Assembly (NCBI GenBank): GCA_041661275.1
Contig: JBAZUU010000003.1
Location: forward strand, 25,586-89,585
Direction of reading: 5' to 3'
Length of the DNA: 64,000 nucleotides
Source: Parcubacteria group bacterium
GTDB taxonomy: Bacteria; Patescibacteriota; Minisyncoccia; Moranbacterales; UBA2206
The position numbers and the translations under genes were made by a program. The stretch's first letter is position 1. Each line of letters starts with the position of its first letter. A model generated the notes under the pieces. The model did no database searches. It was not told the DNA's origin and was given only the letters and a program-made list of their open reading frames with translations. Positions 17,000-47,875 of the stretch are shown piece after piece.

Positions 17000-17395
17000 A
17001 TGAAACCGATCAGTCGAAAATATCATTTGTTTAATGCCGAAGGGAAGACTCCTGGACGAATGGCGACAGAGATCGTAAAGGTTCTCCGTGGCAAGAACAA
17101 GGTTGATTGGACTCCACATATTGATGCGGGAGATTTCGCCGTGGTTATCAATTCTGATAAGATAGCGGTTCTTGGTGGAAAAGAAAGCAAAAAAACCTAT
17201 TATCATTTTAGCGGATATCCGGGAGGAATCAGCGCCATAAAATTAAAAGACCAGATTGTGAAGGACTCAAGAAAAGTTATCAAGGACACTCTTTATGGAA
17301 TGCTTCCGAAAAACAAACTGCGCGACCGGATGATGACGAGACTTTTAGTGTATAAAGATGATAAGCATACACATAAGATAGAGATAACGCATTAA
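17000..17395 (+). CDS. rplM: 50S ribosomal protein L13
   Basis: GRMATEIVKVLRGKNK...DAGDFAVVIN is the L13 pattern. Confidence 0.9.
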   Translation: MKPISRKYHLFNAEGKTPGRMATEIVKVLRGKNKVDWTPHIDAGDFAVVINSDKIAVLGGKESKKTYYHFSGYPGGISAIKLKDQIVKDSRKVIKDTLYGMLPKNKLRDRMMTRLLVYKDDKHTHKIEITH

Positions 17396-17506
17396 TTTAA
17401 AATTTTAAATTTAGAATTTTAAATCAAATCTTAATTTTAAATTTAAAATTAAATCATTTAAAATTCATTTCAAATTTCAAATTTAGAATTTAAAATTATT
17501 AGATAT

Positions 17507-17956
17507 ATGGTTACAAAGAAAGTTAAAGAAAAAGCAGAACCCAAAGAAGAAGCAAAAGCTTCCCGGTATTTTTACGGTCTCGGAAAAAGAAAAACAGCTA
17601 TTGCGCAGGTGCGGATCTACGTAGCCGGGAAAGAAGGAAAGGGAGTTGTGGTCAATGAAAAATCATTTGAAAAATATTTTCCGATCGCGCGTCTACGAGA
17701 TCTGGTGAAAGAGCCCTTAGCTTTGGCCGGACAAGACGCCAAGTTCGATGTCAGCGCCAGAGTTCACGGTGGGGGAGTGAATGCCCAAGCGGAAGCTATC
17801 AGACTGGGAATTTCTCGGGCGCTTATTGAATTCAACCCCGAACTGCGAAAATCACTCCGAGACAATGGATTTTTGACCCGTGATTCCAGGATTGTGGAAC
17901 GAAAAAAACCAGGTTTGCGAAAAGCCCGAAGAGCGCCACAGTGGGCAAAACGCTAA
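17507..17956 (+). CDS. rpsI: 30S ribosomal protein S9
   Basis: C-terminal GGGVNAQAEAIRLGISRAL...RKKPGLRKARRAPQWAKR is S9. Confidence 0.9.
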   Translation: MVTKKVKEKAEPKEEAKASRYFYGLGKRKTAIAQVRIYVAGKEGKGVVVNEKSFEKYFPIARLRDLVKEPLALAGQDAKFDVSARVHGGGVNAQAEAIRLGISRALIEFNPELRKSLRDNGFLTRDSRIVERKKPGLRKARRAPQWAKR

Positions 17957-17984
17957 TTTTGAGTACATTACATTTATATATACC

Positions 17985-18011
17985 AAAAATCCTGTGAAAG
18001 CGGGATTTTTG
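17985..18011 (+). terminator. Rho-independent terminator after rpsI
   Basis: Hairpin atcctgtgaaagcgggat followed by ttttt. Confidence 0.55.
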
Positions 18012-18041
18012 GCTTATATAGGGGATAATATGATCTTATGT

Positions 18042-18070
18042 TTGACAAAATGGTTAAAAAGGAGTATAAT
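18042..18070 (+). promoter_or_regulatory. Sigma-70 consensus promoter TTGACA-N17-TATAAT
   Basis: ttgaca 18042-18047 and tataat 18065-18070, spacer 17 nt. A roughly 115-nt leader with nested stems (acagc...gctgt; ctctacgtcgtgtagag) follows. Confidence 0.55.
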
Positions 18071-18188
18071 GTAAGGTTGAACATTAAAAATTTATACCTA
18101 GCCATTTAACAGCCATTTTCTGGCCAGCTCTACGTCGTGTAGAGGCAGCCGGAAATGTGCTGTTAAAAACAAATGAAAGGTAGAGACA

Positions 18189-18704
18189 ATGGAAAACGTA
18201 CTCGAACTTTTTAGTAAAGGCAAGGATCTTTCTGCTGATTTGGCAGAAAAAGTTGAAAAAGTTTGTTTGATTGTTGAAAGGTTGGACAAGTTTAAATCTG
18301 GTGAAGAAAGAAGAATTTTGTGGGAAGAATTTGAAGACATGCTCGGAATTGAAGTCGAGATATGTCATCAAGTAATAAAGGATGATGAGACCGGAGAAGT
18401 GATTGATGAATACGTCGAGTGTTCAGTCAATCAACGCCCGGACAACCTTTTCTGGCACCTCTGTCAGAACTTGCCCTCACTTTACACGGTTGATTGGACT
18501 GAAGGAAGGGATTACGTCATTCTTCCTAATGGTTTTGTAATCGAGCTGTGTAGCACTGGACTGTATTATTCGAAAAACATCAATTCGCTCACGAATCGGA
18601 TTCTTGATGAAATCAAGAGTCAAGAAGAATATCGAAAAGAATGTGAAGAGTCGGAGCGAGAGTATTACTCCTCAGAAGAATGTCGGGAGTGGTACAAGAA
18701 GTAG
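18189..18704 (+). CDS. Hypothetical acidic Cys-rich protein inserted within the ribosomal protein gene cluster
   Basis: 171-aa ORF with six or more Cys and an E/S-rich tail. No recognisable motif. Confidence 0.45.
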   Translation: MENVLELFSKGKDLSADLAEKVEKVCLIVERLDKFKSGEERRILWEEFEDMLGIEVEICHQVIKDDETGEVIDEYVECSVNQRPDNLFWHLCQNLPSLYTVDWTEGRDYVILPNGFVIELCSTGLYYSKNINSLTNRILDEIKSQEEYRKECEESEREYYSSEECREWYKK

Positions 18705-18915
18705 GAACTATTATATCGAAATTGAGTACTGCAAAGAAGCCGGATAGTAGAAAAATAGAAACTTGATTTTGTTTAATTAGGCTAAGAGCACAAGATTAGA
18801 GAAATGGGTCTAATCTTATCAATCCCTAGGATTTACACCGCGCTTGTAAGTCCTTTTTTATTTTCCAAAACAAAACCGCCCTTTTGAGGCGGATTTATTT
18901 TGTTAGAGTTGTATG

Positions 18916-19209
18916 TTATTTCTTCTTTTTCTTGGAAATTGTCTTTTTGATCTCCGGTTTGGTTTTGACGCGTTCTTTCTTTTTCGGTTTCGCAGCCAAT
19001 TTCTTGGCGGCAATTTCTGTCAGTTTCTTGAAGCGGTCAACTCGTCCGGCGGTGTCCATCAGCTTCTTTTTGCCGGTATAAAATGGATGGCAAGCGGAGC
19101 AGATTTCCACTTTCATTTCCGGCATAGTTGAGCCGGCGGTAATGACATTGCCGCAAGCGCAAGTAATTTTGGCGTTTTTGTAGTATTTGGGATGAATATT
19201 CTTTTTCAT
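18916..19209 (-). CDS. rpmE: 50S ribosomal protein L31 (with K-rich C-terminal tail)
   Basis: [28 protein letters not shown]...[13 protein letters not shown] is the L31 zinc-ribbon pattern. Confidence 0.85.
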
Positions 19210-22403: not shown

Positions 22404-22475
22404 GCCGAAGTAGCTCAATGGTAGAGCAGCGCTCTTGTAAAGCGAAGGTTGGGGGTTCAAGTCCTCTCTTCGGCT
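22404..22475 (+). tRNA. tRNA-Thr (anticodon TGT)
   Basis: Manual fold. Acceptor gccgaag/cttcggc. D-arm gctc-aatggta-gagc. Anticodon loop cttgtaa. T-arm ggggg-ttcaagt-cctct. No encoded CCA. Confidence 0.7.
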
Positions 22476-22493
22476 CGTTAAAATAAAAATAAA

Positions 22494-22892
22494 ATGCACA
22501 TAAAAACAAAAGGATATATTGCAGAAATGTATGTAACGGCGCGGCTAATTGAAGACGGATGGCGAGTGTTGCATCCAATCGGAGAAAATAATCGGTATGA
22601 TCTGGTTGCTGAACGCGACGGAAAATTTATCAGAATCCAGGTTAAATATGTGACACCTAAAAAAGGTGTTTTGGATGTAAATTGCAGAAGTAGTAATAAT
22701 TGGTCAGTTTTGCATTATTCAGCTAAGGAAATTGATGTTATAGCAGCTTATAATGCGCAAACCAGAGATATCTATTACATACCAGTTTCAAAAATAAATA
22801 GAAGTTTGATAAAATTAAGAATATTTCCAACAAAAAACAACCAGAAGATAAATATTAATTCAGCAGAAAAATTTTTAAAATTAGAATATTAA
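22494..22892 (+). CDS. YraN-like (UPF0102) PD-(D/E)xK endonuclease family protein
   Basis: GYIAEMYVTARLIEDGWRVLHPIGENNRYDLVAERDGKFIRIQVKY matches the YraN pattern (G..aE..a...L...G..il.....GEIDLIa.dg...FVEVKtR). The gene is embedded in the tRNA cluster. Confidence 0.5.
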   Translation: MHIKTKGYIAEMYVTARLIEDGWRVLHPIGENNRYDLVAERDGKFIRIQVKYVTPKKGVLDVNCRSSNNWSVLHYSAKEIDVIAAYNAQTRDIYYIPVSKINRSLIKLRIFPTKNNQKININSAEKFLKLEY

Positions 22893-22897
22893 TATAT

Positions 22898-22980
22898 GGG
22901 TGTGTCGCATAGTGGCAATTGCTCCTGACTGTAAATCAGGCGTCCTACGGACTTCGCAGGTTCGAGTCCTGCCGCACCCA
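22898..22980 (+). tRNA. tRNA-Tyr (anticodon GTA, long variable arm)
   Basis: Acceptor gggtgtg/cgcaccc. Anticodon stem-loop cctga-ctgtaaa-tcagg. Variable arm cgtcctacggacttcg. T-arm gcagg-ttcgagt-cctgc. Confidence 0.8.
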
Positions 22981-23013
22981 CATAAAATAAATAGTTTGCC
23001 GTTGTTTCGATGT

Positions 23014-23088
23014 CGGGATTGCCGAGATAGCTCAGTTGGTAGTCGCCTCATCGGCGACCTGCCGAAGAGGCAGGAGCACGTCCTTGCC
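23014..23088 (+). pseudogene. Disrupted tRNA-Gly(GCC)-like 5' half: intact D-arm, 31-nt insertion, sequence through anticodon GCC, then truncated (no T-arm or 3' acceptor)
   Basis: gccgagaTAGCTCAGTTGGTAG[tcgcctcatcggcgacctgccgaagaggcag]GAGCACGtCCTTGCCt matches tRNA-Gly(GCC) up to position 36, then diverges. No TTCRA T-loop before the next tRNA. Confidence 0.35.
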
Positions 23089-23102
23089 TGATTTCGTTTA
23101 AT

Positions 23103-23174
23103 GCCCAGGTAGTTCAGTGGCAGAACGCTTCCATGGTAAGGAAGAGGTCGAGAGTCCGATTCTCTCCCTGGGCT
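23103..23174 (+). tRNA. tRNA-Thr (anticodon GGT)
   Basis: Acceptor gcccagg/cctgggc. D-arm gttc-agtggca-gaac. Anticodon stem-loop cttcc-atggtaa-ggaag. T-arm gagag-tccgatt-ctctc. Confidence 0.75.
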
Positions 23175-23273
23175 CAAGTTTAATAAAATTAATTGTATCC
23201 CTCATCCGTCTCCGACTATCCGTCGGAGCCACCTTCTCCCAGAGGGAGAAGGGGATTTGAAGGGACTGAATAT

Positions 23274-23429
23274 ATGGCGCGAGAAAATTTGGTGAAAATG
23301 CGATGCTCCGATTGTAAAAGTATCAATCATTTCACAACCAGAAACAAGAAAAAAATCAAAGAGAAATTGGAACTAAAAAAGTTCTGCAAAAAATGCCGGA
23401 AAAATACCGTGCACAAAGAGATGAAATAA
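23274..23429 (+). CDS. rpmG: 50S ribosomal protein L33
   Basis: MARENLVKMRCSDCKSINHFTTRNKKKIKEKLELKKFCKKCRKNTVHKEMK is the L33 zinc-ribbon pattern. ORF track 23193 has extra upstream residues. Confidence 0.8.
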   Translation: MARENLVKMRCSDCKSINHFTTRNKKKIKEKLELKKFCKKCRKNTVHKEMK

Positions 23430-23473
23430 GTGAGTGTCCGCCTTCGCTCTTTTCGAGCTTCGGCGGGACGAAG

Positions 23474-23547
23474 GCGGGATTCGTACAGTGGTAGTACATC
23501 GGTCTCCAAAACCGACGACGTAGGTTCGATTCCTACATCCCGTGCCA
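23474..23547 (+). tRNA. tRNA-Trp (anticodon CCA, CCA end encoded)
   Basis: Acceptor gcgggat/atcccgt. D-arm gtac-agtggtag-tac. Anticodon stem-loop tcggt-ctccaaa-accga. T-arm gtagg-ttcgatt-cctac. Discriminator g, then cca. Confidence 0.8.
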
Positions 23548-25137
23548 ACGTGTAATCAGCGAGCTTAATTGCTCGCTTTTTACTTTGTTAGAGCCACTTT
23601 CTCTCGGTTCTAACCCTTCATATTCACTATGCAAGGCAGGATACTTGTTTGTGATAGGCACAAACCAATCTTTGGCTTGAATGGCGGATATTTTGTCTTT
23701 TATGGCGTGGTTCGAGCCTAAATGCAAAATAAGCTCTCGTTTGCCCTCAAGGTCTCTTTTGAGAAATTCATTATGGGCGTAAGCCGCAAAAGAAAATGTC
23801 TTTTCCGTGAGCTCCAGCGTTTTTTCTTTGTTTTCTTCGGCGTGTTTCAGTTTATCCTCAAACTGGGCGATATTTTTCTTTAGCGTTTCCCGTTCAACTA
23901 CAAATTCATCATCGGTAATCAAATTTTTATAACGCATAGCCGTGAGGCTGGCAAGCTGATTTTTAGTTTCCGAAAGCGTTCTCTCTTGCATCTCTTTTAT
24001 TTTCTTCTCGTTATCAATCTCGGTGCCCTTTTTACTTTCGATAACTTCCAACGCCCAAGACAAAAATTCGGGAATCATTTCGTATTTTTCCAGTTCATAT
24101 TCCAGTTGCTCAAAAAGTTTTCTTTCCTCTAAAACTTTATTCTGCGTGCATTTTCTTTTTTTACTCTTTCTGGTGCAGTGATAATACGTATAGGCTCTTA
24201 GCTCGCCCGTGCTTTTAATGAGTTTATATTTTGTCTCTGCGGTATACATACAGCCACATTCCGGACAGCGGAACAAGCCAGTGAAAGGGAAATGGTGTTT
24301 TTTGGGTCTGGGTTTTCCCGCTCGTCCCAAAATGGCTTGAGCTCGGTCATATTCTTCGAGCGTTATCATTGGGGTGTGTTTTCCTGGATATTGTATGTTA
24401 TTGTGTTCGATAATTCCTGCATAAAAGATATTGGTAAAAATTTTATACATACCGCTCATTGCTAATGGCTTGTCTCCTAATCTCTTTTTCTTTATTGTCC
24501 GGAATCCCCATTCATTATTGAGCTTATTAAGGACTTGAGGCACTGTGTAATCACCAGTAAGCATTAAATCCCAAGCTTTACGAAGCAATCTGAATCGCAA
24601 TGGGTCTATTGGCATTGTGTGCGTTGCCAAATCATTTAAATAGCCTGTAGGTGCCATTCCAGGTCTCCACCCATCCTCTCGTTTCTTCTGGTTTCCTCTT
24701 TTAACAACCGTGCTTAAATCTCGAGAATACTGGTTAGCCATTCCACTTTCAACACTAAAAAGCAATACATTGTCCTCGGGTTTGTATTCCTTTTCTATTG
24801 TTTGGATTGATTTAATAACTCCTTGTTGCAAGAGCCAGCTTATTTTCCCGCTGTCTATTGGATTTCTGGAAAGACGGTTAAGGTGCCAGCATAAAATGCC
24901 ATCCGCCTCTCCACTTTCAATTCTTTTTATCATCTCATCGAATAGGGGACGATTGTTCGGTTTTTTGGCGGACTTTGATTCTTTGTAGGTATTCTTCACA
25001 TTAAAGCCCCTGTCCTTGGCTAATCGCTCCAGGCTTCCAACTTGGTCTTCGATTGATTGCACCTGGCGGTCTTCGCTTTCTGAAGATTTTCGAGCGTAGA
25101 GAAAATATTTTATTTCTTGCGGTTTAGTTGTTGCCAT
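23533..25137 (-). CDS. Large serine recombinase (phage/ICE integrase type)
   Basis: 534 aa. N-terminal resolvase catalytic domain (YARKSSESEDRQVQSIEDQ with catalytic Ser). Recombinase domain, zinc ribbon (CPECGC...YYHCTRK), C-terminal coiled coil. Confidence 0.8.
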   Translation of the reverse strand: MATTKPQEIKYFLYARKSSESEDRQVQSIEDQVGSLERLAKDRGFNVKNTYKESKSAKKPNNRPLFDEMIKRIESGEADGILCWHLNRLSRNPIDSGKISWLLQQGVIKSIQTIEKEYKPEDNVLLFSVESGMANQYSRDLSTVVKRGNQKKREDGWRPGMAPTGYLNDLATHTMPIDPLRFRLLRKAWDLMLTGDYTVPQVLNKLNNEWGFRTIKKKRLGDKPLAMSGMYKIFTNIFYAGIIEHNNIQYPGKHTPMITLEEYDRAQAILGRAGKPRPKKHHFPFTGLFRCPECGCMYTAETKYKLIKSTGELRAYTYYHCTRKSKKRKCTQNKVLEERKLFEQLEYELEKYEMIPEFLSWALEVIESKKGTEIDNEKKIKEMQERTLSETKNQLASLTAMRYKNLITDDEFVVERETLKKNIAQFEDKLKHAEENKEKTLELTEKTFSFAAYAHNEFLKRDLEGKRELILHLGSNHAIKDKISAIQAKDWFVPITNKYPALHSEYEGLEPRESGSNKVKSEQLSSLITRWHGM

Positions 25138-28239: not shown

Positions 28240-28694
28240 GCTATAAATCAAGCCAGTTTTACTTTTTATCTCTTTTGCTCTATATTTAAGGCACTTCACA
28301 AAGAAATCGAAACAAAGTATCCCGAAGGGAAGCGGACAGGAAACTGACCCAGAAGCCATATAAAATACCAGCGAGCATTAGTTCTTTTGTCGCCCTTGGC
28401 GAATAAGTCTCGCAGTATTTCCAATGAGAAGGTTGTCATCTTCTCACCGCACCGACCAAAAAGACGCTGGAAAGAATAATCCGCCGTAGGAGGAAAAATC
28501 TCAGCCTCGGGGTGTATCGAACGGTGCTAACATCCCCTAGACCAAGTAAAGGCCACTGCTTGTTTCGCAGAACAGTTCCATATCCTTACACGGGCAACCG
28601 TAGATGTAGGGTTATAGTTTATTTGTCCCAATTTAGCTTTTTGAGCTATATAGCTTTTTATACAGTTAATCCAATAAAGCCTTTGGCAACAAAA

Positions 28695-29402
28695 ATGCTT
28701 AGGAAAAAGCTATTAAGCAAAAAAGGGGCGATTTTGTCTCTTATTCTACTTTTTGGCATAATCGCAGTTATTTTTCTTTGGAATTATGAATTTAAGCCGG
28801 AAGAGAAACAGCAGATATGCCAACCGCTATTTTTGGAATACACCTTCGGCGATATTGATTCCCGCTTCAATCTGAAAAACGAAGAACTTATCGAAATGCT
28901 GAAAGACAGTGAGAAGATTTGGGAGGAACCGTTGGAATACGACGTTCTTCGCTACAATCCCGAAGCGTATTTTAAGATAAATTTTGTCTTTGACGAAAGA
29001 CAAGAATACGATATGCTCGAACAGGAATATTCCGAGCTTCAATATTCCCTCAATTTCTCGGAAAAAACCAAGAAAGAAACAGCAAAAATCCAAAAAGAAA
29101 TGGCTGTCATAGAAGCCAAGCAAGATTTGCTCTCCGATAAAATTTACAGCTCGGGAGAAAAATACGAGAAAGACGAAGCTTATACCCAGGGAGATTATAC
29201 GGGAAACTCCATCAATATTTATAATTTTGACGATAGGGATGAATTAGTAACGCTTCTCGCTCACGAGTTCGGGCACGCCTTGGAAGTTCCTGACAACCAA
29301 GACCCTGATTCGATTATGTGTGGGATTAACAGCGGACATTTTCGGCAGGCTACCCCAGATGATTTGGAAAAGGCGAAAGATTTTTGTGTAAGTTCAGAAT
29401 AG
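28695..29402 (+). CDS. Zincin-like metallopeptidase (HExxH) with N-terminal signal anchor
   Basis: HEFGHALEV...D..DSIMCG zinc-binding motif. Start at ATG 28695 (MLRKKLLSKKGAILSLILLFGIIAVIF); ORF track extends upstream to 28512. Confidence 0.5.
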   Translation: MLRKKLLSKKGAILSLILLFGIIAVIFLWNYEFKPEEKQQICQPLFLEYTFGDIDSRFNLKNEELIEMLKDSEKIWEEPLEYDVLRYNPEAYFKINFVFDERQEYDMLEQEYSELQYSLNFSEKTKKETAKIQKEMAVIEAKQDLLSDKIYSSGEKYEKDEAYTQGDYTGNSINIYNFDDRDELVTLLAHEFGHALEVPDNQDPDSIMCGINSGHFRQATPDDLEKAKDFCVSSE

Positions 29403-29449: not shown

Positions 29450-30727
29450 ATGGACATACTTAGAAAGCCAATAAATTCATTTGGTCATAGCGATATAGTA
29501 TCTTTTTGTCAGGAAAAAAATCCTGAAGGTGTCCAGTTGGATTATAAGAAGGAACTTCCTCAAAGAGGCCTTGCTAAACATTTTGCCGCATTTTCAAATA
29601 CCAGAGGCGGTGTATTGATAATCGGGGTCGAGGAGGATAAAAAATCAGGATTTCCAGTTATGTGGGACGGAATCGAAGGAGATGCAAAAATGATTGAAAA
29701 AATTCACCAGGAAGCAAGTAATGTTGAGCCGATTCCTTCGTATGAAGTGCACGCTACCGATAAAATTGACGGCAGAAATTTTATTATTATTAGAATATTT
29801 GAAGGAGACAAAACTCCTTATTATGTCCAAAATGATTCTAATGTTTGGGTAAGGACTGGAAACATAAGTAATCCTATTGATATTGCCTCTCCAGATGGAT
29901 TGGAGTTGTTGTTTGGAAAAAAGGAAAAAGCTGAAAAGGCTAGAAATAATTTTTTACTGATAGGCAAGGAATTACACGAAGCGGCGATTGAGAAAGAAGA
30001 GAAAAAAATAAGAGAAGGATGGAAAAAAGAAATAGAAAAAGAAGGAGGTACGACTATTTTTAGATATGAAAAAATAATCGGAATTGATGATGCGATATGC
30101 AAAATAACACTACAGCCATATTTTCCAAGTAAATCACTTGTAGCTCCAAAAGAAATTAAAGACAATATTGATTCAATCCGCTTTAGAAATGGCAATTTTA
30201 CATTTCCGCAGTTAAATGTCGAGCCATCACCAAAAGGAATAAGATATTTTTCTTATCAAAGAAGCAGAGAAATACTTGAATCTCAGATAGTTCTTGGACA
30301 AGGACTAATTCAAAATATTTTTACAGTTTCAAGGAAAGGTCAGGATGAAGAACCTAGAATAATAAGCCTCCAAGCAATCGCCACTAGAGTTTTTGGAATA
30401 TTTAGATTTGCCGATAAATTCTACAATAAATACGGCTATCAGGGAGTGCTCATTGGAAGTATAGAAATAAGCGGGGCTGAAGATGCTCTAGCCAGAAGGA
30501 TAGTGCCATCGGGTATGGATTTTTGGGATAATGATAAAATAAAAGATAGCTTGCTGTCCGATTATTTATGGGAAATAAAAATTGATACAAGGATATTAAA
30601 AGAAAAGGATAAACTGAAAAAATATTACGAAGAAGTTCTGGAAGAAATTTATTGGGATTTTGGTTTTGAAGAATTTGGCGAAGGTGTTATTGATAAATTT
30701 TTTAAAGATAGCGGGTTCACATTCTGA
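29450..30727 (+). CDS. AlbA_2/Schlafen-like (divergent AAA, putative DNA-binding) domain protein
   Basis: N-terminus VQLDYKKELPQRGLAKHFAAFSNTRGGVLIIGVEED follows the AlbA_2 (PF04326) pattern E..lE.K......l.k.i.AfaN..GG.l.iGv.d. Confidence 0.5.
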   Translation: MDILRKPINSFGHSDIVSFCQEKNPEGVQLDYKKELPQRGLAKHFAAFSNTRGGVLIIGVEEDKKSGFPVMWDGIEGDAKMIEKIHQEASNVEPIPSYEVHATDKIDGRNFIIIRIFEGDKTPYYVQNDSNVWVRTGNISNPIDIASPDGLELLFGKKEKAEKARNNFLLIGKELHEAAIEKEEKKIREGWKKEIEKEGGTTIFRYEKIIGIDDAICKITLQPYFPSKSLVAPKEIKDNIDSIRFRNGNFTFPQLNVEPSPKGIRYFSYQRSREILESQIVLGQGLIQNIFTVSRKGQDEEPRIISLQAIATRVFGIFRFADKFYNKYGYQGVLIGSIEISGAEDALARRIVPSGMDFWDNDKIKDSLLSDYLWEIKIDTRILKEKDKLKKYYEEVLEEIYWDFGFEEFGEGVIDKFFKDSGFTF

Positions 30728-31006
30728 TGATTTATCAAGGTCAATTTCAGGGGGTAATTTTGGTTCATATTACATTTTTAATACCCACCTCTTCATAGAA
30801 GGGTTTGAAATCTTAATAGAATCTGGAATATCTGATAGCTAAACTCCAGATTATAATTTCCGCGAAAATGTTGACAAAATGCCGAAAGTGTTATACGATA
30901 GCACATCGGTTCTTTTTATTTCTATGCGGGCTATAAATGGCTGAAATCCATTAAAAATATAGGTGACTTCAACATCAGAAAAAAAACCAAAAGGAGGCAA
31001 GTAATT

Positions 31007-31885
31007 ATGAAATCCGTAAAAACAGTAATGATACTGGCGGAAGAAAAAAGGAAGCGTGCAGATGTTCTGGCTCAACAGGCCAAGGACATTTACACCGAAG
31101 TCAGTCAGGATTGGAACAACATTGCCCAACGTATCAGGGATGGAGAAACCTCGGGCGACCCGCTCAAGGATTTTATCGCCACAAGGTATTTCGCATTCGA
31201 CGAAAAAACCGAAGAGCGTTTCCGTGCCCTTCAAGCAAGGTTCAAGAATTTTCAAGGGCAATATGCAATGCTGGTGCGGGTAAGTAAGGAGAGGAGTCAC
31301 GCACATAGCGATAATTTCGTCGAAAAAACGGAGTTGAGCGTCGGTGTCCTCAGCGGAGACTCATTTATCCTTGACCCGCCTCAGGCACTGTTCTGGTTTC
31401 CTACGGGCGGTAAGAATGCCGTTTGCTACGACCGCTTCAATCAAAACCCCGTTTATATGCGTGAGGGCGACCTGACTCTTCCGCTCCTTGAAGATATGGG
31501 GCTCAAAACATCGTCTGAACTGCAAATCCTCATCGGAGACGAAGAAGTTGCTGGCTGGTTTGAGGAACAGCGTGGTGAAAATTATTTCAAGGTTTTTTGT
31601 GGCTTCAATGCAGTTCTGGGCAGGTCAGTGATACATCCCAGGCTCTCGGTCTATCTCAGCAAAAAACGGGACGAGTGGCTTAAGGAACACGACGCCTTGA
31701 AAGCCAAGAAGGTCTGGCTGGAAGCCGAGTGCAAGCGACTCAAGAAGCCAGGCGTAACCGACGGCAGTGTGGTCAAAATGGAAAAAGAAATTCAGGAAAT
31801 TCCCGAAAGGATAAAGGCCATCATCTCTGAGGCTTCTGGCTGGGGCGTCAATGACCTGGACTGGGAAAACGCCACCGCAGCCTAA
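31007..31885 (+). CDS. Hypothetical protein (gene 1 of a GC-rich three-gene cassette)
   Basis: 292-aa ORF. SD aaaaggagg before ATG. Promoter-like ttgaca-N17-tacgat at about 30873-30901. GC markedly higher than flanks. Confidence 0.5.
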   Translation: MKSVKTVMILAEEKRKRADVLAQQAKDIYTEVSQDWNNIAQRIRDGETSGDPLKDFIATRYFAFDEKTEERFRALQARFKNFQGQYAMLVRVSKERSHAHSDNFVEKTELSVGVLSGDSFILDPPQALFWFPTGGKNAVCYDRFNQNPVYMREGDLTLPLLEDMGLKTSSELQILIGDEEVAGWFEEQRGENYFKVFCGFNAVLGRSVIHPRLSVYLSKKRDEWLKEHDALKAKKVWLEAECKRLKKPGVTDGSVVKMEKEIQEIPERIKAIISEASGWGVNDLDWENATAA

Positions 31886-32101
31886 CGCAGTCCATTACAG
31901 CCCGTGTTTTTTGGAGAAGGAACACTACCGTTCCTTCTCCCCATTTCTAAGTTTGGCAGTAAATGGTAAATTTGGATGATGGATTAAATAAAGTTCTTTT
32001 TAGCGATATGACTTCGGGATGAAGTCATATAAAAAATTATTAACTCGATAGTAAGCGGGATGCTTCCTATCATAACCAGCTAAAAGCTGAAGGAGTTTGT
32101 G

Positions 32102-32662
32102 ATGAGCACTATGTCCGAAAAAAGAAGAGATGCGTTTTTTGAGGAATTTCCTTGGCTCAGCAAATATGTAAAGTTGAAACACAGGAAATATATCAGAAGC
32201 ATCAAGGTGTCCAGAGCGGATAAAGACTTACTCGGAAGAACTGCTTTGTCTGAGTTTATCGACAAAGGCGAGGACAGCTACTATATTTTCGAGCAACTCG
32301 TCCTTCTTGATGAAAATGGCGACATCCTAAAGCGAGAACTTCCCTCAGAGGATTTCAGTATCTGGAGACCTTGCACCTGGAGAAGGCATCGTTTCATTGT
32401 TGGCAGAGTAACCGAACCTCATACTGTTGCAGAATGTATTGTTAGTCTCGGTTCTGAATCTGAAAGGATTGCGTTTATCTTTTCTGTTTTCTGTAATAAC
32501 CTTGTAATCTACAAGCCTCCCAAGAAGTTTAATATTCAGACGCTTCTAGAAGAGGTTGAAGAAGATAAGAGACGGGAAGCGGAAGAAGAGAAGAAAAAAG
32601 AAGCAGAAATCTTTGATGCTCAAAAACAATCTATCCGAAAAGAATGGGAATCGCTGGATTAA
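32102..32662 (+). CDS. Hypothetical protein (gene 2 of the GC-rich cassette)
   Basis: SD aaggag then ATG 32102. K/E-rich C-terminus. Confidence 0.45.
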   Translation: MSTMSEKRRDAFFEEFPWLSKYVKLKHRKYIRSIKVSRADKDLLGRTALSEFIDKGEDSYYIFEQLVLLDENGDILKRELPSEDFSIWRPCTWRRHRFIVGRVTEPHTVAECIVSLGSESERIAFIFSVFCNNLVIYKPPKKFNIQTLLEEVEEDKRREAEEEKKKEAEIFDAQKQSIRKEWESLD

Positions 32663-32681
32663 CTAAAAAGGAGAACCTTCT

Positions 32682-33041
32682 ATGGTTGCCGAGACGTGGA
32701 CAGTTTCAACTGAGGACAAGCTCGGGTTTAGGATGTATCCTCTTCGGGACGAGAAACGCCAGTTTCCTGATATGGTGCCTGTGAGCATACACATTGGTAA
32801 GTTTTCCTGTCGTGGATATGTGCCCAGCGAAGAATACGACGGGCATTACGAGTCGCCGTATGCGGAACTCATCGTTAAATATGACAGTTCCGAAAGGATG
32901 CAACCCGACCTGACCAAGTGGAATTTCCAGAAGATGTCCTGCTGGCTGACAAAGGACGCTGTAGCCTATTCGCTCTATATCAAGAAGCAGAAATTGGAGC
33001 GGTTACGAACTTACCTGCGAAATTCCTGCAGGCTTCCGTAA
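32682..33041 (+). CDS. Hypothetical protein (gene 3 of the GC-rich cassette)
   Basis: 119-aa ORF 19 nt after gene 2. SD aaaaggag. Confidence 0.45.
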   Translation: MVAETWTVSTEDKLGFRMYPLRDEKRQFPDMVPVSIHIGKFSCRGYVPSEEYDGHYESPYAELIVKYDSSERMQPDLTKWNFQKMSCWLTKDAVAYSLYIKKQKLERLRTYLRNSCRLP

Positions 33042-33070
33042 CAGCATCTTTCAGACAATCATTGACCAAA

Positions 33071-33110
33071 AGGCGGCACAGAGAACCATATTCTGCACCG
33101 CCTTTTTCTT
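33071..33110 (+). terminator. Rho-independent terminator closing the GC-rich cassette
   Basis: ggcggcacagagaaccatattctgcaccgcc hairpin followed by tttttctttt. Confidence 0.5.
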
Positions 33111-33148
33111 TTGAACGAAAAAAATTAAAAATTTTTATCTAGAAAGTT

Positions 33149-33200
33149 TTTAGAAGTATTTCTGGCTATGTCTCATTTTTATCCCCCCTCCCTCTTGTTA
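33149..33200 (-). pseudogene. 5' gene remnant A (SD GGGAGGGGGG plus ATG, ORF MRHSQKYF*), paralogous to remnant B
   Basis: Minus-strand ATG at 33173-33175 preceded by gggagggggg. About 85% nt identity with 36222-36272. Confidence 0.4.
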
Positions 33201-33225
33201 GGGGTTTGTGTTATAATTTGCTTGT

Positions 33226-34210
33226 GATGCTATCATTAGAAACTAAAACTAAAGAAATAATCGACAGTCTAGTCCGACTAGCTAGGGAAGTAGAAATTTG
33301 CAATGGAATGGGCTTTTTTGATGGCAATAAATGTGCCGAAGATTTTTTTAAGGGCATTTTGAACCGTGTTTATGACTGCAATCTTATCAATCTTAATTTG
33401 GAAAAAAATAATTTTCCAGCAGTTGACTTAGGCGATAAATCCAAGAGATTAGCAATTCAAGTTACAGCGAGCACGGGGAGAGCAAAAATTTCAAATTCTA
33501 TAACGAAATTTGTAAATCATAACCTCTACGAAACTTATAAAAAGCCAATATTCTTAATCATTGGAAAAAAGCCAAAATATTCCAAAAATTTCGATGCCGA
33601 CACGGAGGGAAAATTTATTTTCAACCCTTCTGAAGATATTTTAGATATTACCGATTTAATAAAAATAATTTCTTCTTTACCCGTTGAAAAAATCACAGAC
33701 CTTAATGAGTTTATTATTTCTAATGTTACCGACGTATTATCTATTGACCCGATTAAAATTAACGAGCAGGATATTAAAAATTTAATTCTAGGCATAAGAG
33801 ATGCTATAAATGACGATACCTCGTTTAAACAAAAATATTCCAGTGATATTCCGATGAGATTCCAGGATTATATTGTAGAAAAAAATAAACTAAACGAGAT
33901 AGATAAATTGTTTTTTGAACAGGTGTTCGCTAGAAGTCTCGCGTATAGCGATGATATTAAGAATTTTTTATCCGACCCCATAAACGCAGAGATAAAAGAG
34001 TGGTATTTTACTATTAGTAGTGAACTTCAGAATGAATATATAAAAAATAGAGATAATTTCGATTTGTTGGAATTTATAGACAAGATTTATGATAAGGTCT
34101 GTAGAAAATTTAAGGCGGATTTGTCATATGACAAAAGAAAAATTAAGGTAATGCTTCATTGTATGTATTTTCATTGTGATTTAGGAATAAATCCAGAGGA
34201 AAAAACATAA
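33226..34210 (+). CDS. Putative effector with SMEK-like/restriction-endonuclease-fold N-terminal domain (candidate ABC-3C C-component)
   Basis: Motif NFPAVDLGDKSKRLAIQVTASTG (D...QVT, PD-(D/E)xK-like). ATG 33226 preceded by tataat at 33211. ORF track begins at TTG 33206. Confidence 0.4.
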
Positions 34211-34452
34211 TGATAACACCAAATAAATATACAAATTTAGACTTATCAGTCTTGAATATCGGGGCTGAAATTGTTAAGGTGCTTCAGAAAAGCAGTCTTC
34301 TTAAATATGATGACCTGTTAAATCAGATTCTGCTAAAGAAGGGGAGGGGGGCGAAAGAAATTTTTGTCTATTCTTTAAATTTTTTATTTGTTCTGAATAT
34401 AATTAAATACCATAGTTCTGAGGATATAATCGAATTTTATGAAACTCGTTAA
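34210..34452 (+). CDS. Small protein (80 aa), candidate ABC-3C middle component
   Basis: Start overlaps the upstream stop (TAATG). Its end overlaps the downstream ATPase by 14 nt. Confidence 0.4.
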   Translation: MITPNKYTNLDLSVLNIGAEIVKVLQKSSLLKYDDLLNQILLKKGRGAKEIFVYSLNFLFVLNIIKYHSSEDIIEFYETR

Positions 34453-36199
34453 GATATATTCTAATATTTCCAGTATGAAGCCAGTTATTTTTAATTCTGG
34501 CTTAAATATAATATACGGCGATGTAAGTCAATATGAAGGAGACAGCAATGAGCATAATTTAGGAAAAACTTCGCTTGTCTACCTGATAGATTTTTTGTTA
34601 TTAAAAAAAATAGATAAAAATAATATATTTAGGAAAAGAAGGAGTAATTTCTTAGGCTGGGATTTTTATTTGGAAGTAGAGCTGGATGATAAATCATACC
34701 TTACGATTAAAAGAAATCTGGTTAATGATTCCAGAATATCAATTAAGCTTCATAAGGAAGGAAATCAGGACTTGTCGTCGGAGGTGTTTTGGGACTATAA
34801 AGATAAATCAATAAGTGCGAAAAAAGAAGAGGAAAATGCGGTTAAGATTTTGAAAAATATATTGAAATTCGATGTCTTAAGCGAATATAATTTGAGGCAT
34901 TTTCTTTCCTATCTTCTAAGAACCCAAAATGATTATGCGGATGTTTTTAGATTAAGCACGTTCAAAAAAGACAAAAACTGGAAGCCACCCCTTCTTTCTC
35001 TATTTGGATATAACGGACAACTATTTGAGAAGAAGTATGATTTAGAGCAGGAAATTTCTATCCGTAGAGAATTGATTGCAAAAATGAAGTCGGATAATCT
35101 CATAGAGAAATCAGAGGAAGCTTTCAAATTACAAGCTGCCATTAAGGCTAGGGAGGATGAAAAGAAATCAATAGAAAAAAATCTTGAAATGCTCAATTTT
35201 TTTACCAGGGATGAACAAATGACGGAAAAAATAGTGAAAGAATTTGAGACAAAAATTAGTATCCTAAATTCTGAGGAATATAGCCTAAAATACGAGGTCG
35301 ACAAGATTAATAAATCATTGGAAAATAATGTTTCCGTTAAAGTTTCTGATGTTAAAAAGATATATGAAGAGGTGGAAATATTTTTTCCAGATAAGCTTAC
35401 TAAATCTTATGAGGAATTAGCCAATTTTAATAAGCAAATTTCAGACGAGAGGTCAAAATACCTAAAAAAAGAATTGGACAATCTGAATGATAGGCTGATG
35501 ATTATTAAAAAAGACCTCAAGGAATATAATGATAAGTTATCAGAAGCCTTATCGATAATAAAGGAGAAAGATGCATTTATAAAATTTAGGAAATATCAAA
35601 ATGAGCTTATAAAAATAGAAACAGACATTGCCATATATAAACAAAAAATTGAGAGTATAGACACTATAGAAAATTATAGTAATGCGATTAGCGAGATAAG
35701 AGAAAAATCCAAAGAAATATCCTCAATAATTAAGGGGGATTTGGCGGAAGAAAAAAATCCATTGCAAGAAATACGTGAGATGTACACTGAGATTTTTAGA
35801 AAAACTATGGATGGAACTGCTACTTTCGCAATAACTCCAAATAAATATGGTTATTTTGATTTTGAGCCGTTTGTAATAAGCGGCGGTGATTTAACAGGGC
35901 AGGGAGATGGATACACCGCTACAAAAGTTCAATGTGCCGCGTTTGTTATAGCGGCATTGGCTTACTATTCAAAAAATTCTTTTTATAAATTTGCCTATCA
36001 CGATGGCATTTTTGAGGGCTGGGGAGATAATCCTAAGATAAATTTTATCAATCTAATTAGGGAATATTGTGATAAATATAAAATTCAGTATATCGCAAGT
36101 ATGATAAAAAGTGATATTCCCAAAAACTTTGATTTTGAAAAAGAAGAAATAATAATTACTTTAGACAAAAACCAGCCATTATTTGGTATCAAATTTTGA
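34439..36199 (+). CDS. SMC/ABC-type ATPase with long coiled-coil insert (candidate ABC-3C ATPase)
   Basis: N-terminal head KLVKIYSNISSMKPVIFNSGLNIIYGDV...NLGKTSLVYL (RecF/SMC-like Walker A). Roughly 230-aa heptad-rich coiled coil. C-terminal head with FAYHDGIFEGWGD (Walker B/D-loop-like). Confidence 0.5.
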   Translation: MKLVKIYSNISSMKPVIFNSGLNIIYGDVSQYEGDSNEHNLGKTSLVYLIDFLLLKKIDKNNIFRKRRSNFLGWDFYLEVELDDKSYLTIKRNLVNDSRISIKLHKEGNQDLSSEVFWDYKDKSISAKKEEENAVKILKNILKFDVLSEYNLRHFLSYLLRTQNDYADVFRLSTFKKDKNWKPPLLSLFGYNGQLFEKKYDLEQEISIRRELIAKMKSDNLIEKSEEAFKLQAAIKAREDEKKSIEKNLEMLNFFTRDEQMTEKIVKEFETKISILNSEEYSLKYEVDKINKSLENNVSVKVSDVKKIYEEVEIFFPDKLTKSYEELANFNKQISDERSKYLKKELDNLNDRLMIIKKDLKEYNDKLSEALSIIKEKDAFIKFRKYQNELIKIETDIAIYKQKIESIDTIENYSNAISEIREKSKEISSIIKGDLAEEKNPLQEIREMYTEIFRKTMDGTATFAITPNKYGYFDFEPFVISGGDLTGQGDGYTATKVQCAAFVIAALAYYSKNSFYKFAYHDGIFEGWGDNPKINFINLIREYCDKYKIQYIASMIKSDIPKNFDFEKEEIIITLDKNQPLFGIKF

Positions 36200-45782: not shown

Positions 45783-47114
45783 ATGTTAAAAGTACTGAAG
45801 ATGTCAATGATTTTGGTTTGCTCGATTTTTTTTGTCACGTCAGTCGATGCCGGCGGCAAGCCGGAAAACAGGCCGGCTCCAGCGCCAAGAGCAGCTCCTG
45901 CGCCTCGACAACAAGCGCCAAGACAGCAGATGGCACCAAGGCAACAAGCGCCAAGACAGCAGATGGCACCAAGGCAACAAATGGCGCCAAGGCAAGCGCC
46001 CCAGCAGCGTCCTCAGATGCAGCAGCAACGTCCACAGGGTTTCGGGCAACAGAAATCCTTCGGCAATCAGGGATCTGCTGGCAATAGATTTGGCAACCAG
46101 GGAGCCAATGATCGAGGTAATAGATTCGGTCAGCAGGGATCCGGAAAAGCCGGTAGTACAGGAAGTAGATTTGGCAACCGGGGATCCGACGGTAGCAAAT
46201 TCAGTCAGCAAGGAACTGGCAAGTCTGGCGACAAAACCAGTAGCAAATTTGACCATCAAGGTGCCCAGGGAACTGGAAAGGCCGGTAGTAAATTTGGCCA
46301 GCAAGGAACTGGTAAAGCCGACAGTAGATTTGACAGGCAAAAAACCGGAAAATCTGGCAACAAGCTTGGAAAAACCGGTGAAAAATCCAGTGTCCAGGGT
46401 GCTGGCAAAGGTAAGCAGCCTGACACGGGAAAAATCGCCTCGGACAAAAACAAGCCGGGTGGCGAGAAGATCGGCGGTAAGAATCAGCCGATTGCCGGAA
46501 AACCATCTATGGATGGCAAAAAGCCTATGGACGGAAGAATGTCCGGCCAGAAAATGAACAGACCCAACAGATCCGAGCTGGGCGAGAAAATGAAGAGATC
46601 GCCCAACAAAGAGGCTCTTCGCGACGCGAAGATGGGGCGAAAAGCCGAGCGCGCGAAATTCAGGGACGATCCTAAGCATCACAGACTCAGAGAGCATGAG
46701 CACTCGATGGTGCGCAGTAGCTTTGAATCGCATTCCTGGAGTTACTCAGAATATTCCTACACCTCCACCACTTTTTATGAATCATATGGATATGCACCAG
46801 CACCGTGGTGCTTCGAACTGGCGCCGTATTACGGCGTTTGGGACACAACGTATCTTGGATTCGTTGTAGCCAATGCCGTCGAAATGGAAAGTTCCATTTT
46901 TTATTACCATCACAGAGGGGAAGAGGAGTTGATGGCATGGCGCGCAGAAATGGATCGATTGGCTCAGCAGGATGCTGAACTGGCCGCGCAACTAGCGGTG
47001 CTGGATGAACAAGCGCAGCTGCTGGCAAGCCAAGGCATTGCGGTCAACCCAAACTATGTTCCTGATGCTCCTGTTTTTGCTCCGGAAATTGTGGAGCAAA
47101 TGCAATTAGAATAA
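45783..47114 (+). CDS. Secreted low-complexity repeat protein (APRQQ and FGQQGTGK repeats)
   Basis: Signal peptide MLKVLKMSMILVCSIFFVTSVDA. Tandem peptide repeats. GC-rich relative to the window. Confidence 0.55.
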   Translation: MLKVLKMSMILVCSIFFVTSVDAGGKPENRPAPAPRAAPAPRQQAPRQQMAPRQQAPRQQMAPRQQMAPRQAPQQRPQMQQQRPQGFGQQKSFGNQGSAGNRFGNQGANDRGNRFGQQGSGKAGSTGSRFGNRGSDGSKFSQQGTGKSGDKTSSKFDHQGAQGTGKAGSKFGQQGTGKADSRFDRQKTGKSGNKLGKTGEKSSVQGAGKGKQPDTGKIASDKNKPGGEKIGGKNQPIAGKPSMDGKKPMDGRMSGQKMNRPNRSELGEKMKRSPNKEALRDAKMGRKAERAKFRDDPKHHRLREHEHSMVRSSFESHSWSYSEYSYTSTTFYESYGYAPAPWCFELAPYYGVWDTTYLGFVVANAVEMESSIFYYHHRGEEELMAWRAEMDRLAQQDAELAAQLAVLDEQAQLLASQGIAVNPNYVPDAPVFAPEIVEQMQLE

Positions 47115-47156
47115 CAAGCTCTTCTGGTTTCAGTGAGAACTGGATCTGAGCAATAT

Positions 47157-47200
47157 AAACCCCCGGCTTCGCCTTGTGCGAGATCGGGGTCCTTTTTTTC
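47157..47200 (+). terminator. Rho-independent terminator
   Basis: ccccggcttcgccttgtgcgagatcgggg hairpin followed by tcctttttttc. Confidence 0.55.
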
Positions 47201-47266
47201 AATTTAAAAACCCCGCCGACGTAGCGCCGATGGGGGTAGTGCATTGGCAGCCGATGGGGGTAGTGA

Positions 47267-47875
47267 TCAGCGACGTTTGCCGCTGGATTTGCCATGGATC
47301 CTTCTATCTGAATCTTTGATCGCTTGCGCGGGAAACCTCTTGCCATCGATCCGGCAAAACGATAAACCGTAGCCAGTCGACGAGTCGCTGGCACAGCAAT
47401 TGAATTTCTTGTCCACGAAAAGAAGAACCGGCAATTTACAGGCATCGGCTGGTCCGATGTCCAGCAATTCCATAAACTTCTTCTCCGCTTCGGAGCGCGA
47501 TGTTTCGATGTCGATATCCGTAATGATGATTCCGAAAGGATATTTACTGTTTTTGAGAGCATATATTCCATAGCTCTCATTTTCAAAAAGACATGGCTCA
47601 TCGACGTTACAGTCGATAAACTGGCAGAAATCGGTCACCGACACCGCGCCACGGCCGAAATTGAAGTTGACTCTTTCTCCGGTTGGCGCTGGCGTCGGGC
47701 TTTGGGCGCGCTGTTGTTGGCGCGCATTTTCGTTTTCAATAATGGTGCCGAATACTCCGCCGATAATTCCACTAATCGCATTGGCGGTATCCTCATCCAA
47801 TCCAGCCCTGGCAGGTGGCGCCAAAAAGGCGAAACAAAGGGACACAACGAAAAGCACGGTCAAAATTTTTTTCAT
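47267..47875 (-). CDS. Secreted protein (signal peptide, Cys-containing)
   Basis: MKKILTVLFVVSLCFAFLAPPARA signal. GC-rich. Confidence 0.5.
   Translation of the reverse strand: MKKILTVLFVVSLCFAFLAPPARAGLDEDTANAISGIIGGVFGTIIENENARQQQRAQSPTPAPTGERVNFNFGRGAVSVTDFCQFIDCNVDEPCLFENESYGIYALKNSKYPFGIIITDIDIETSRSEAEKKFMELLDIGPADACKLPVLLFVDKKFNCCASDSSTGYGLSFCRIDGKRFPAQAIKDSDRRIHGKSSGKRR

Follow-up and report, generated by a model that had tools for sequence, protein, structure and literature searches.

A probable mosaic of three unrelated hypothetical genes, one preceded by a candidate regulatory RNA, in a variable region of a Parcubacteria genome

Results

The DNA studied here is a stretch of 64,000 nucleotides (the window) from contig JBAZUU010000003.1 (positions 25,586 to 89,585 of the forward strand) of assembly GCA_041661275.1. 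By NCBI naming, its source is a metagenome-assembled genome of the Parcubacteria group, within the candidate phyla radiation (CPR), with contigs of up to 172 kb. Three open reading frames (ORFs) on one strand, ORF1, ORF2 and ORF3, lie between a Schlafen/AlbA_2 gene and a trio of ABC-3C genes; NCBI lists the three proteins as WCV59_02760, WCV59_02765 and WCV59_02770. A preliminary description made from the sequence alone had presented them as a self-contained, GC-rich and recently acquired operon, and had proposed that they form a novel defence or addiction module. Our analysis suggests instead that the block is probably a mosaic of three evolutionarily unrelated hypothetical genes in a variable, recombinase-associated region of the genome, most likely organised as two transcription units and not as one module.

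The three ORFs most likely form two transcription units

All features of the block are on the plus strand. ORF1 (31007..31885), a stand-alone hypothetical gene of 292 aa, is preceded by a strong Shine-Dalgarno (SD) sequence, AAGGAGG (30991..30997), 9 nt before its ATG at 31007, and by a promoter-like box, TTGACA-N17-TACGAT (30871..30899), which matches the consensus at 10 of 12 positions. Eight such boxes were found in the region and 5.5 were expected by chance, so the ORF1 box is weak evidence, suggestive only. The leader of ORF1 (30900-31010) is unstructured (z +1.5). ORF2 (32102..32662) encodes 186 aa from its ATG, or 187 aa from a GTG at 32099, and begins 216 nt after ORF1 (213 nt to the GTG). 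ORF3 (32682..33041; 119 aa) is located 19 nt downstream of ORF2, and its SD sequence, AAAGGAG (32667..32673), is found 5 nt after the ORF2 stop codon and 8 nt before the ORF3 ATG. An intrinsic terminator made of an interrupted hairpin followed by TTTTTCTTTT closes the block (33068..33113; -17.3 kcal/mol, z -4.26); a terminator pattern scan missed it, probably because the interrupted stem falls outside the scan pattern. The promoter-like box, the strong SD sequence, the three ORF lengths, the closing hairpin with its T-run and the placement between the Schlafen/AlbA_2 gene and the ABC-3C trio were all as first described.

A single operon is expected to have one promoter, no internal terminator and short gaps. 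This organisation was found for ORF2 and ORF3 alone, which have no terminator between them; the block as a whole departs from it. The gap between ORF1 and ORF2 contains a hairpin at 31913-31940 that is stronger than the closing one, followed by a promoter-like element and a conserved leader proper to ORF2, and the idea of one closed, self-contained operon was abandoned on these grounds. Judged from these signals, the most likely arrangement is one of two transcription units. The first would consist of the promoter-like box, the strong ribosome-binding site, the 292-aa GC-rich gene and its own hairpin; the second, with ORF2 and ORF3, would begin at a 43-nt element and a leader of ~115 nt and end at the shared terminator.

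The hairpin after ORF1 (31913..31940) has an 11-bp, G+C-rich stem (GGAGAAGGAAC/GTTCCTTCTCC) and starts 27 nt past the ORF1 stop codon (-18.9 kcal/mol, z -5.35). Its tail, CCATTTCT, has 4 T in 8 positions; this is a terminator-like hairpin with a weak T-tract. The ORF2 homologue of L010 (L numbers designate the loci compared with the window) ends in a homologous hairpin, in which one pair has changed in a compensatory way. The conserved intergenic element of 43 nt, CCATTTCTAAGTTTGGCAGTAAATGGTAAATTTGGATGATGGA (31941..31983), is unique in the window and contains a promoter-like TTGGCA-N16-GATGAT at 31953-31980. A sigma-54 reading of the TTGGCAG in this element was rejected by eye, the -12 element being absent. 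Positions 31930-31983 share 87% identity with 6611-6663 of L010, as compared with about 70% for adjacent coding DNA. The hairpin and element lie upstream of ORF2 in the window and downstream of its homologue in L010 (6586-6663), where a shortened copy is also present upstream (5877-5898) and a 15-nt exact direct repeat, ATTTGGGTGATGGAA, part of the 43-nt element, flanks the homologue. The hairpin and the 43-nt element may represent a portable block combining a terminator with a promoter or operator, or the scar of a recombination between tandem cassettes.

The guanine plus cytosine (GC) content was also heterogeneous. The values were 0.497 for ORF1 (0.56 at third codon positions, GC3), 0.405 for ORF2 (GC3 0.41) and 0.492 for ORF3 (GC3 0.61), with 0.391 for the whole window. 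A GC content of about 50%, in sharp contrast with neighbours at about 35%, had been attributed to the entire block; it was found for ORF1 and ORF3, which have the same composition, but not for ORF2, which is close to the window average. The immediate neighbours, the flanking defence genes, have a GC content of 0.30-0.34, below the window average, so the contrast is partly exaggerated. Recent horizontal acquisition, claimed for all three genes, is plausible for ORF1, whereas ORF2 is compositionally native, and ORF3 deviates but has no relatives to compare it with.

ORF2 is preceded by a conserved, structured leader

Relatives of ORF2 were found in five further contexts; one shares 30% protein identity with ORF2, the others 68-73%. 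At the DNA level, the window resembles the other ORF2 loci as far as 90-140 nt ahead of the start codon, over a 5' leader of ~115 nt (31988..32101; z -3.98). Copies of the leader are found in L014 (780-897), L010 (5898-6019), L006 (9886-10006), L009 (366-483) and L018 (5881-5997). Independent folds gave the same architecture in every lineage, and the RNAalifold consensus was identical. An anti-SD sequence, GTTCTTT (31993-31999), pairs with the SD sequence AAGGAG (32090-32095) of ORF2, and the resulting outer helix encloses two hairpins, at 32006-32030 and 32047-32071. Each presents the pentaloop GGGAU (32016-32020 and 32057-32061), closed by a C-G pair. The leaders of L010 and L018 have an additional, third small GGGAU hairpin, which abuts the ribosome-binding site. 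Conservation is confined to the SD region and the two short loops, themselves almost identical to each other, and is poor at the junctions.

A covariance model of the leader (R1) was built from five lineages, leaving out L018, a member of the Moranbacteria. The five building lineages scored 109-121 bits, and the L018 copy was recovered at 70 bits (E 6e-15). When the six lineages were aligned, 93.7% of cells were paired and both sides had changed in 12 of the 27 pairs; hairpin 1 contributes strongly, with 8 of its 11 pairs covarying. None of 500 shuffles reached the observed covariation, and slid controls left 36-57% of cells paired. Searches against Rfam returned only 4 tRNAs for the window at the gathering threshold, and only sub-threshold noise for region 30700-33300 at E<=10. 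Model R1 did not detect the leader upstream of distant family members (L013, L021 and L022). Matches to a loose leader pattern in IMG/VR were discarded as chance, scoring 21 bits or less with R1. From its pattern of conservation we read the leader as a putative protein-binding element for translational control; it is a candidate new cis-regulatory RNA, absent from Rfam.

ORF2 belongs to a large unnamed protein family

An exhaustive HMMER search of 1.84 billion representatives of clusters defined at 50% identity, using a profile from six sequences, returned 308 clusters at E<=1e-3 and 89 at E<=1e-10. The family proteins are typically ~150-250 aa long; the best 150 matches measure 130-310 aa and nearly all align in one single stretch. 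The only names attached to the family are hypothetical proteins of Moranbacteria and Parcubacteria. ORF2 itself gave nothing significant in Pfam, PADLOC, PHROGs, NCBIfam or PDB sequences, no meaningful Pfam match was obtained for 104 family members, and a profile of 104 sequences found no relative in the PDB (noise, E > 0.1). Pattern scans of GTDB representative genomes and IMG/VR found no ORF2 relatives, and a scan of JGI metagenomes returned only contigs already among the compared loci.

The conserved features of the family are an N-terminal motif, (K/R)I.AF..EFPW(L/V), the motifs VSR....LL and LLD..G, a nearly invariant YK.P within VI.YK.PK and a charged C-terminal helix. The N-terminal 140 residues of ORF2 are basic (isoelectric point 8.4), with a value of 6.1 for the whole protein and a family median of 7.9. 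An AlphaFold2 model was too poor to interpret (mean predicted local distance difference test score, pLDDT, 62). Between ORF2 and its L014 homologue, divergence at the three codon positions was 0.20, 0.15 and 0.50; in both ORF1 and ORF2, third positions diverge 2-3 times as much as first and second positions, and the homologues of both retain length and frame. ORF1 and ORF2 are genuine genes. The GC content of ORF2-family genes mostly follows that of the host contig, and ORF2 is native in composition, a member of a large unnamed family that occurs singly in such genomes. Many distant members (e.g. P0017, P0133 and P0136) are annotated with an N-terminal extension starting M.TQ.EL, and in some of the extended proteins a shared SDRCGGCSG precedes the family's (K/R)I.AF..EFPW start. 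Such extensions may be genuine parts of the proteins, or may come from translating a conserved nucleotide element that lies upstream.

The genomic contexts of ORF2 relatives were diverse. Homologues are found before a gene of 110 aa (L006), before a Pif1 helicase gene (L009), upstream of rpoB/rpoC (L010) and after an RND efflux pump (L018); more distant members lie between a PDZ protease gene and CorA/CysS (L013), among PriA, def, fmt, aroA and mreB (L021) or between fpg and a Mur ligase gene, with ruvA and rpsT (L022). The genes 3' of the homologues are unrelated to ORF3 and to one another. The majority of the relatives examined have no closely spaced gene downstream, and those in L014, L009 and L018 have their own terminators.

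Several of these loci contain 16S rRNA sequences. In L006/L007/L008, the ORF2 homologue is preceded at a distance of ~0.9 kb by the end of a complete 16S rRNA gene of the same orientation (L006 7466-9085; also L007 1-967 and L008 1-651). The L009 contig starts with the 3' terminus of 16S rRNA (1-20), likewise on the strand of the homologue, and over its first ~270 nt it matches the L006 sequence that follows 16S. In L018, only a 212-nt remnant of the ends of 16S (5339-5550), located between the RND efflux gene and the ORF2 leader, is left ~0.45 kb upstream of the homologue. This arrangement hints that the closer relatives of ORF2 were ancestrally located behind 16S rRNA and that the window copy has moved. 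The possibility that the leader mimics 16S rRNA was checked: the L006 16S gene has a single 7-nt match to the loop (GGGAUGA), outside any comparable hairpin.

ORF1 has three known relatives and ORF3 none

Three homologues of ORF1 were found in a collection of 5.8 billion clusters, at 66%, 46% and 46% identity. Pattern scans of GTDB representative genomes, IMG/VR and JGI metagenomes and tblastn searches of phages found no further relatives, comparisons with Pfam, PADLOC, PHROGs and NCBIfam gave nothing significant, and those with PDB sequences gave only noise (E > 0.1). In ORF1, divergence at third codon positions is about double that at first and second positions, which indicates selection on the protein. 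Residues ~105-215 form the most conserved stretch, with ILDPP..F.FPTG.K and LQIL.GD.EV; this part is unmodelled and matches nothing known. The AlphaFold2 model was poor (pLDDT 52), with confident helices only at the C-terminus. The protein is predicted to be soluble, with helical ends flanking a conserved central domain.

The ORF1 homologue in L002 is a single gene between a divergent upstream gene and rpmH-rnpA-yidC-jag, and in L002, L004 and L005 a hairpin and T-run of its own directly follow the gene. All four members of the family have a GC content of 50-54%. The L002 copy (0.507, in flanks of 0.487 that carry core genes) is compositionally at home, and the window and L004 copies lie in surroundings of 33-39% GC; in the window, 0.497 stands against a host value of 0.39. 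Since the family is at about 50% GC throughout and the L002 copy is native in a contig of 49% GC, we infer that ORF1 was horizontally acquired from a lineage of about 50% GC.

ORF3 returned only itself in the cluster search, and no homologue was found in the compared loci, IMG/VR or phages, nor any family match in Pfam, PADLOC, PHROGs, NCBIfam or PDB sequences. The preliminary description, which recognised no motif in the three proteins, was right in this respect. The possibility that ORF3 or ORF1 is a diverged member of the ORF2 family was rejected, with hhalign probabilities below 1%. ORF3 has a coding-like pattern (GC3 > GC1 > GC2), and a stop-free run of 119 codons at 49% GC is estimated to occur by chance with a probability of ~0.003 per frame. 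The ribosome-binding site, the GC pattern and the stop-free length make it probable that ORF3 is a gene, probably translated with ORF2 from one transcript.

The block lies in a variable region

Four clustered tRNA genes (22404-23547), the last of which is tRNA-Trp (23474-23547), are followed by a gene for a large serine recombinase of 534 aa (Resolvase + Zn_ribbon_recom; 23533-25137, minus strand), the end of which overlaps the 3' end of tRNA-Trp. The recombinase at tRNA-Trp (23474-25137) probably marks the left border of an inserted element. A direct repeat of tRNA-Trp, of attachment-site type, was sought to delimit the island; none was found, as expected for a serine recombinase, and the right border is thus undefined. 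Between the recombinase and the Schlafen/AlbA_2 gene (SLFN_AlbA_2; 29450-30727), which directly precedes the three ORFs, are one helix-turn-helix gene and several unknown genes. An ORF of 296 aa (28512-29402) ahead of the Schlafen-like gene has a borderline match to Matrixin (Peptidase_M10; E 3.7e-5, 24.1 bits for a cut-off of 24).

On the other side, on the same strand as the ORFs, lies an ABC-3C (Lamassu-type) locus comprising an SMEK_N+CTD12 effector gene (33206-34210), a middle component of type MC6/MC8 (34210-34452) and an ABC ATPase with DUF2326 (34439-36199; PADLOC PDC-M68B). This trio (33206-36199) is complete without ORF1-3. An MC6 and DUF2326 pair like that of the window is also found in the related contig L006, at 17064-19074. 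Past the trio are two unknown genes, a Fic gene and an ABC transporter, and housekeeping genes resume at an aminoacyl-tRNA synthetase. The placement of the block inside an island, as first described, is reasonable. A further GC-rich patch (45783-47875; 0.49-0.52 as compared with 0.39 for the window) contains ORFs of 443 aa (plus strand) and 202 aa (minus strand), both without a Pfam match, so GC-rich unknown genes are not unique to the three-ORF block.

Discussion

The location of the block is what suggests a defence function. If the three genes were one horizontally acquired operon encoding a new anti-phage defence or addiction module, its place between SLFN_AlbA_2 and the ABC-3C trio, in a region starting with a serine recombinase at tRNA-Trp, would be expected; so would the common strand, the 19-nt spacing of ORF2 and ORF3, and the presence of the closer ORF2 relatives of L006 and L009 in variable regions, together with genes for ABC-3C, Fic, NUDIX and peptidase proteins. 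We nevertheless consider a defence module very unlikely. A tblastn search across all compared loci found no other locus holding homologues of two of the three genes, let alone all three. PADLOC gave no significant match for any of them while the neighbouring genes do match, and Pfam, PHROGs and the phage and IMG/VR collections gave neither family matches nor relatives. The composition is heterogeneous, with ORF2 at the window average, and the block is divided by the internal hairpin and by the separate, conserved leader of ORF2. The homologues of ORF1 and ORF2 are scattered single genes, most of which have housekeeping neighbours or follow 16S rRNA, a pattern named beforehand as evidence against a module: core genes surround the ORF2 relatives of L010, L013, L018, L021 and L022 and the ORF1 relative of L002. 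Nor do the three genes behave as extra ABC-3C components; in L006, a distance of 6 kb with nine genes separates the ABC-3C locus from the ORF2 homologue.

A narrower proposal keeps ORF2 and ORF3 together as a lineage-specific pair, either toxin-antitoxin-like or an effector with its partner, in which ORF3 was captured behind ORF2 and ORF1 is unrelated. The short gap, the lack of a terminator between the two genes, their shared terminator and the strong ribosome-binding site of ORF3 agree with this, as does L006, where a different small gene, of 110 aa, follows at +32 nt. Such a pair is improbable all the same: ORF3 has no homologue, nothing similar lies behind any ORF2 homologue and most of the ORF2 relatives examined have no closely spaced gene downstream. 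Toxin-antitoxin systems are recognised as conserved pairs of small genes, at least one of them with a known toxin or antitoxin fold, whereas the ORF2-ORF3 pair is unique to this genome and neither protein matches a toxin or antitoxin domain. In the mosaic of unrelated genes that we favour, ORF3 would ride along as a passenger on the ORF2 transcript.

Some observations weigh against the mosaic interpretation or the way we read the leader. The closer ORF2 relatives tend to lie in variable regions with ABC-3C or Fic genes (window, L006 and L009), and only a few contexts are available overall; these relatives may be loosely linked with accessory or defence regions. Only three ORF1 contexts are usable, two of them contigs of ~1.2 kb. 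The rarity of ORF1 and the lack of ORF3 homologues rest on a word-indexed search and on pattern scans; the ORF2 family rose from 6 to 308 clusters when searched exhaustively, so relatives and contexts of ORF1 and ORF3 may have been missed. Transcripts from the ORF1 promoter may read through into ORF2, the T-tract of the hairpin after ORF1 being weak. The leader is based on six lineages, and the alignment used for the pair counts was fitted to the model. Finally, a phmmer search found no CsrA-like ORF in the 64-kb window or in the compared loci, which cover the genomes in part.

The structure of the leader suggests how it would act. The leader would control translation of ORF2: the long-range GTTCTTT:AAGGAG helix would enclose two hairpins presenting identical GGGAU(G) loops, and a dimeric or repeated RNA-binding protein would recognise both loops and thereby set the access of ribosomes to the binding site. 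Twin identical loops, together with a GGA-containing ribosome-binding site in the sequestering helix, fit a repeated protein site that gates translation. The loop-binding protein could be a regulator of the CsrA/Rsm type, or the ORF2 protein itself acting in feedback; self-binding would account for the way the leader accompanies the gene in all its contexts. A riboswitch, or an element sensing a small molecule or an RNA, with the GGGAU loops engaged in tertiary or kissing contacts, would likewise account for the architecture, in which two covarying hairpins with invariant nucleotides in their loops lie within an outer helix that sequesters the SD sequence; translational riboswitches share this general plan. 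We hold this to be rather improbable, as conservation is limited to two short loops and the SD sequence, with poor junctions, and fits a ligand pocket less well than a repeated protein site. Moreover, no known riboswitch family matched even at E<=10, and no metabolic or transport role can be recognised for the gene downstream.

In a further reading, ORF2 would be a CPR-specific protein associated with rRNA or the ribosome, and the leader would mimic its RNA target for feedback repression, as in ribosomal-protein operons; the window gene would be a second copy, or a relocated one, that came to lie in the island, with ORF1 and ORF3 as unrelated neighbours. The leader travelling with the gene through six genomic contexts, the 16S gene or its remnant upstream of the homologues in L006/L007/L008, L009 and L018, the basic N-terminal part of the protein and two identical loops that suggest a repeated protein-binding site are all consistent with this. 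Against it, no RNA-binding domain was detected, the whole protein has an isoelectric point of 6.1 with a family median of 7.9, the only GGGAUGA in the L006 16S gene is not in a comparable hairpin, the more distant family members lack the leader, and the 16S-linked lineages are just three, of which L006 and L009 are close relatives. We regard the proposal as doubtful. Its fullest form is equally tentative: the ORF2 family would be an unrecognised CPR RNA-binding or ribosome-associated protein, ancestrally encoded just downstream of 16S; its closer relatives would be feedback-regulated through a new class of leader, with twin GGGAU-loop hairpins in an anti-SD helix; and the window copy would have been relocated into a mobile island beside an acquired gene and a homologue-less one.

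The block is therefore ordinary in kind, and what is new is modest: a covarying leader before the closer members of a large unnamed family, with a suggestive adjacency to 16S rRNA. As a caution, tidy sets of unknown genes on one strand between two defence systems can, in small CPR genomes, be accidental neighbours; guilt by association would have mislabelled this block as a defence module. Defining the ORF2 family, which comprises at least 308 clusters and has no Pfam model and no solved structure, would annotate many genomes. Few candidate cis-regulatory RNAs are available for organisms of this kind, about whose gene regulation hardly anything is known, and the leader is one of them; the leader and the 16S adjacency offer testable handles on the function of the protein.

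Four known systems bear comparison with the block. The Lamassu/ABC-3C system is a physical neighbour of the three ORFs, on one strand and in one variable region, but its set of genes is complete and ORF1, ORF2 and ORF3 match none of its components. The autoregulatory leaders of ribosomal proteins (L1, S15 and L10 in Rfam) resemble the ORF2 leader in being co-inherited with one protein family and in sequestering the ribosome-binding site in a helix, and the ORF2 gene is near an rRNA gene in three lineages; unlike in those cases, ORF2 is no known ribosomal protein, no Rfam leader matches and no convincing 16S rRNA mimic was found.

Leaders regulated by CsrA or RsmE, such as those of hcnA and glgC, contain several GGA motifs, as does the ORF2 leader: in six lineages, two GGA lie in hairpin loops and one overlaps the SD sequence. 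The published consensus of CsrA sites is A/UCANGGANGU/A. The leader loop with its closing bases, YUCGGGAUGAR, resembles A/UCANGGANGU/A, but its loops have 5 nt instead of the usual 6 and the 5' side is shifted in register by one base. Across the DNA searched, the leader was detected beside the closer ORF2 relatives and nowhere else, a distribution more usual for gene-specific feedback than for a global regulon. One study reports csrA among the genes highly expressed in ultra-small groundwater prokaryotes (PMC9938205). Finally, the ORF2 family resembles other uncharacterised families of small proteins in CPR bacteria (Patescibacteria), with ~170 aa, no Pfam domain and members that occur singly among core genes. 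To this pattern the closer ORF2 relatives add two traits that we did not find described, a covarying leader and, in three lineages, adjacency to the 16S rRNA gene.

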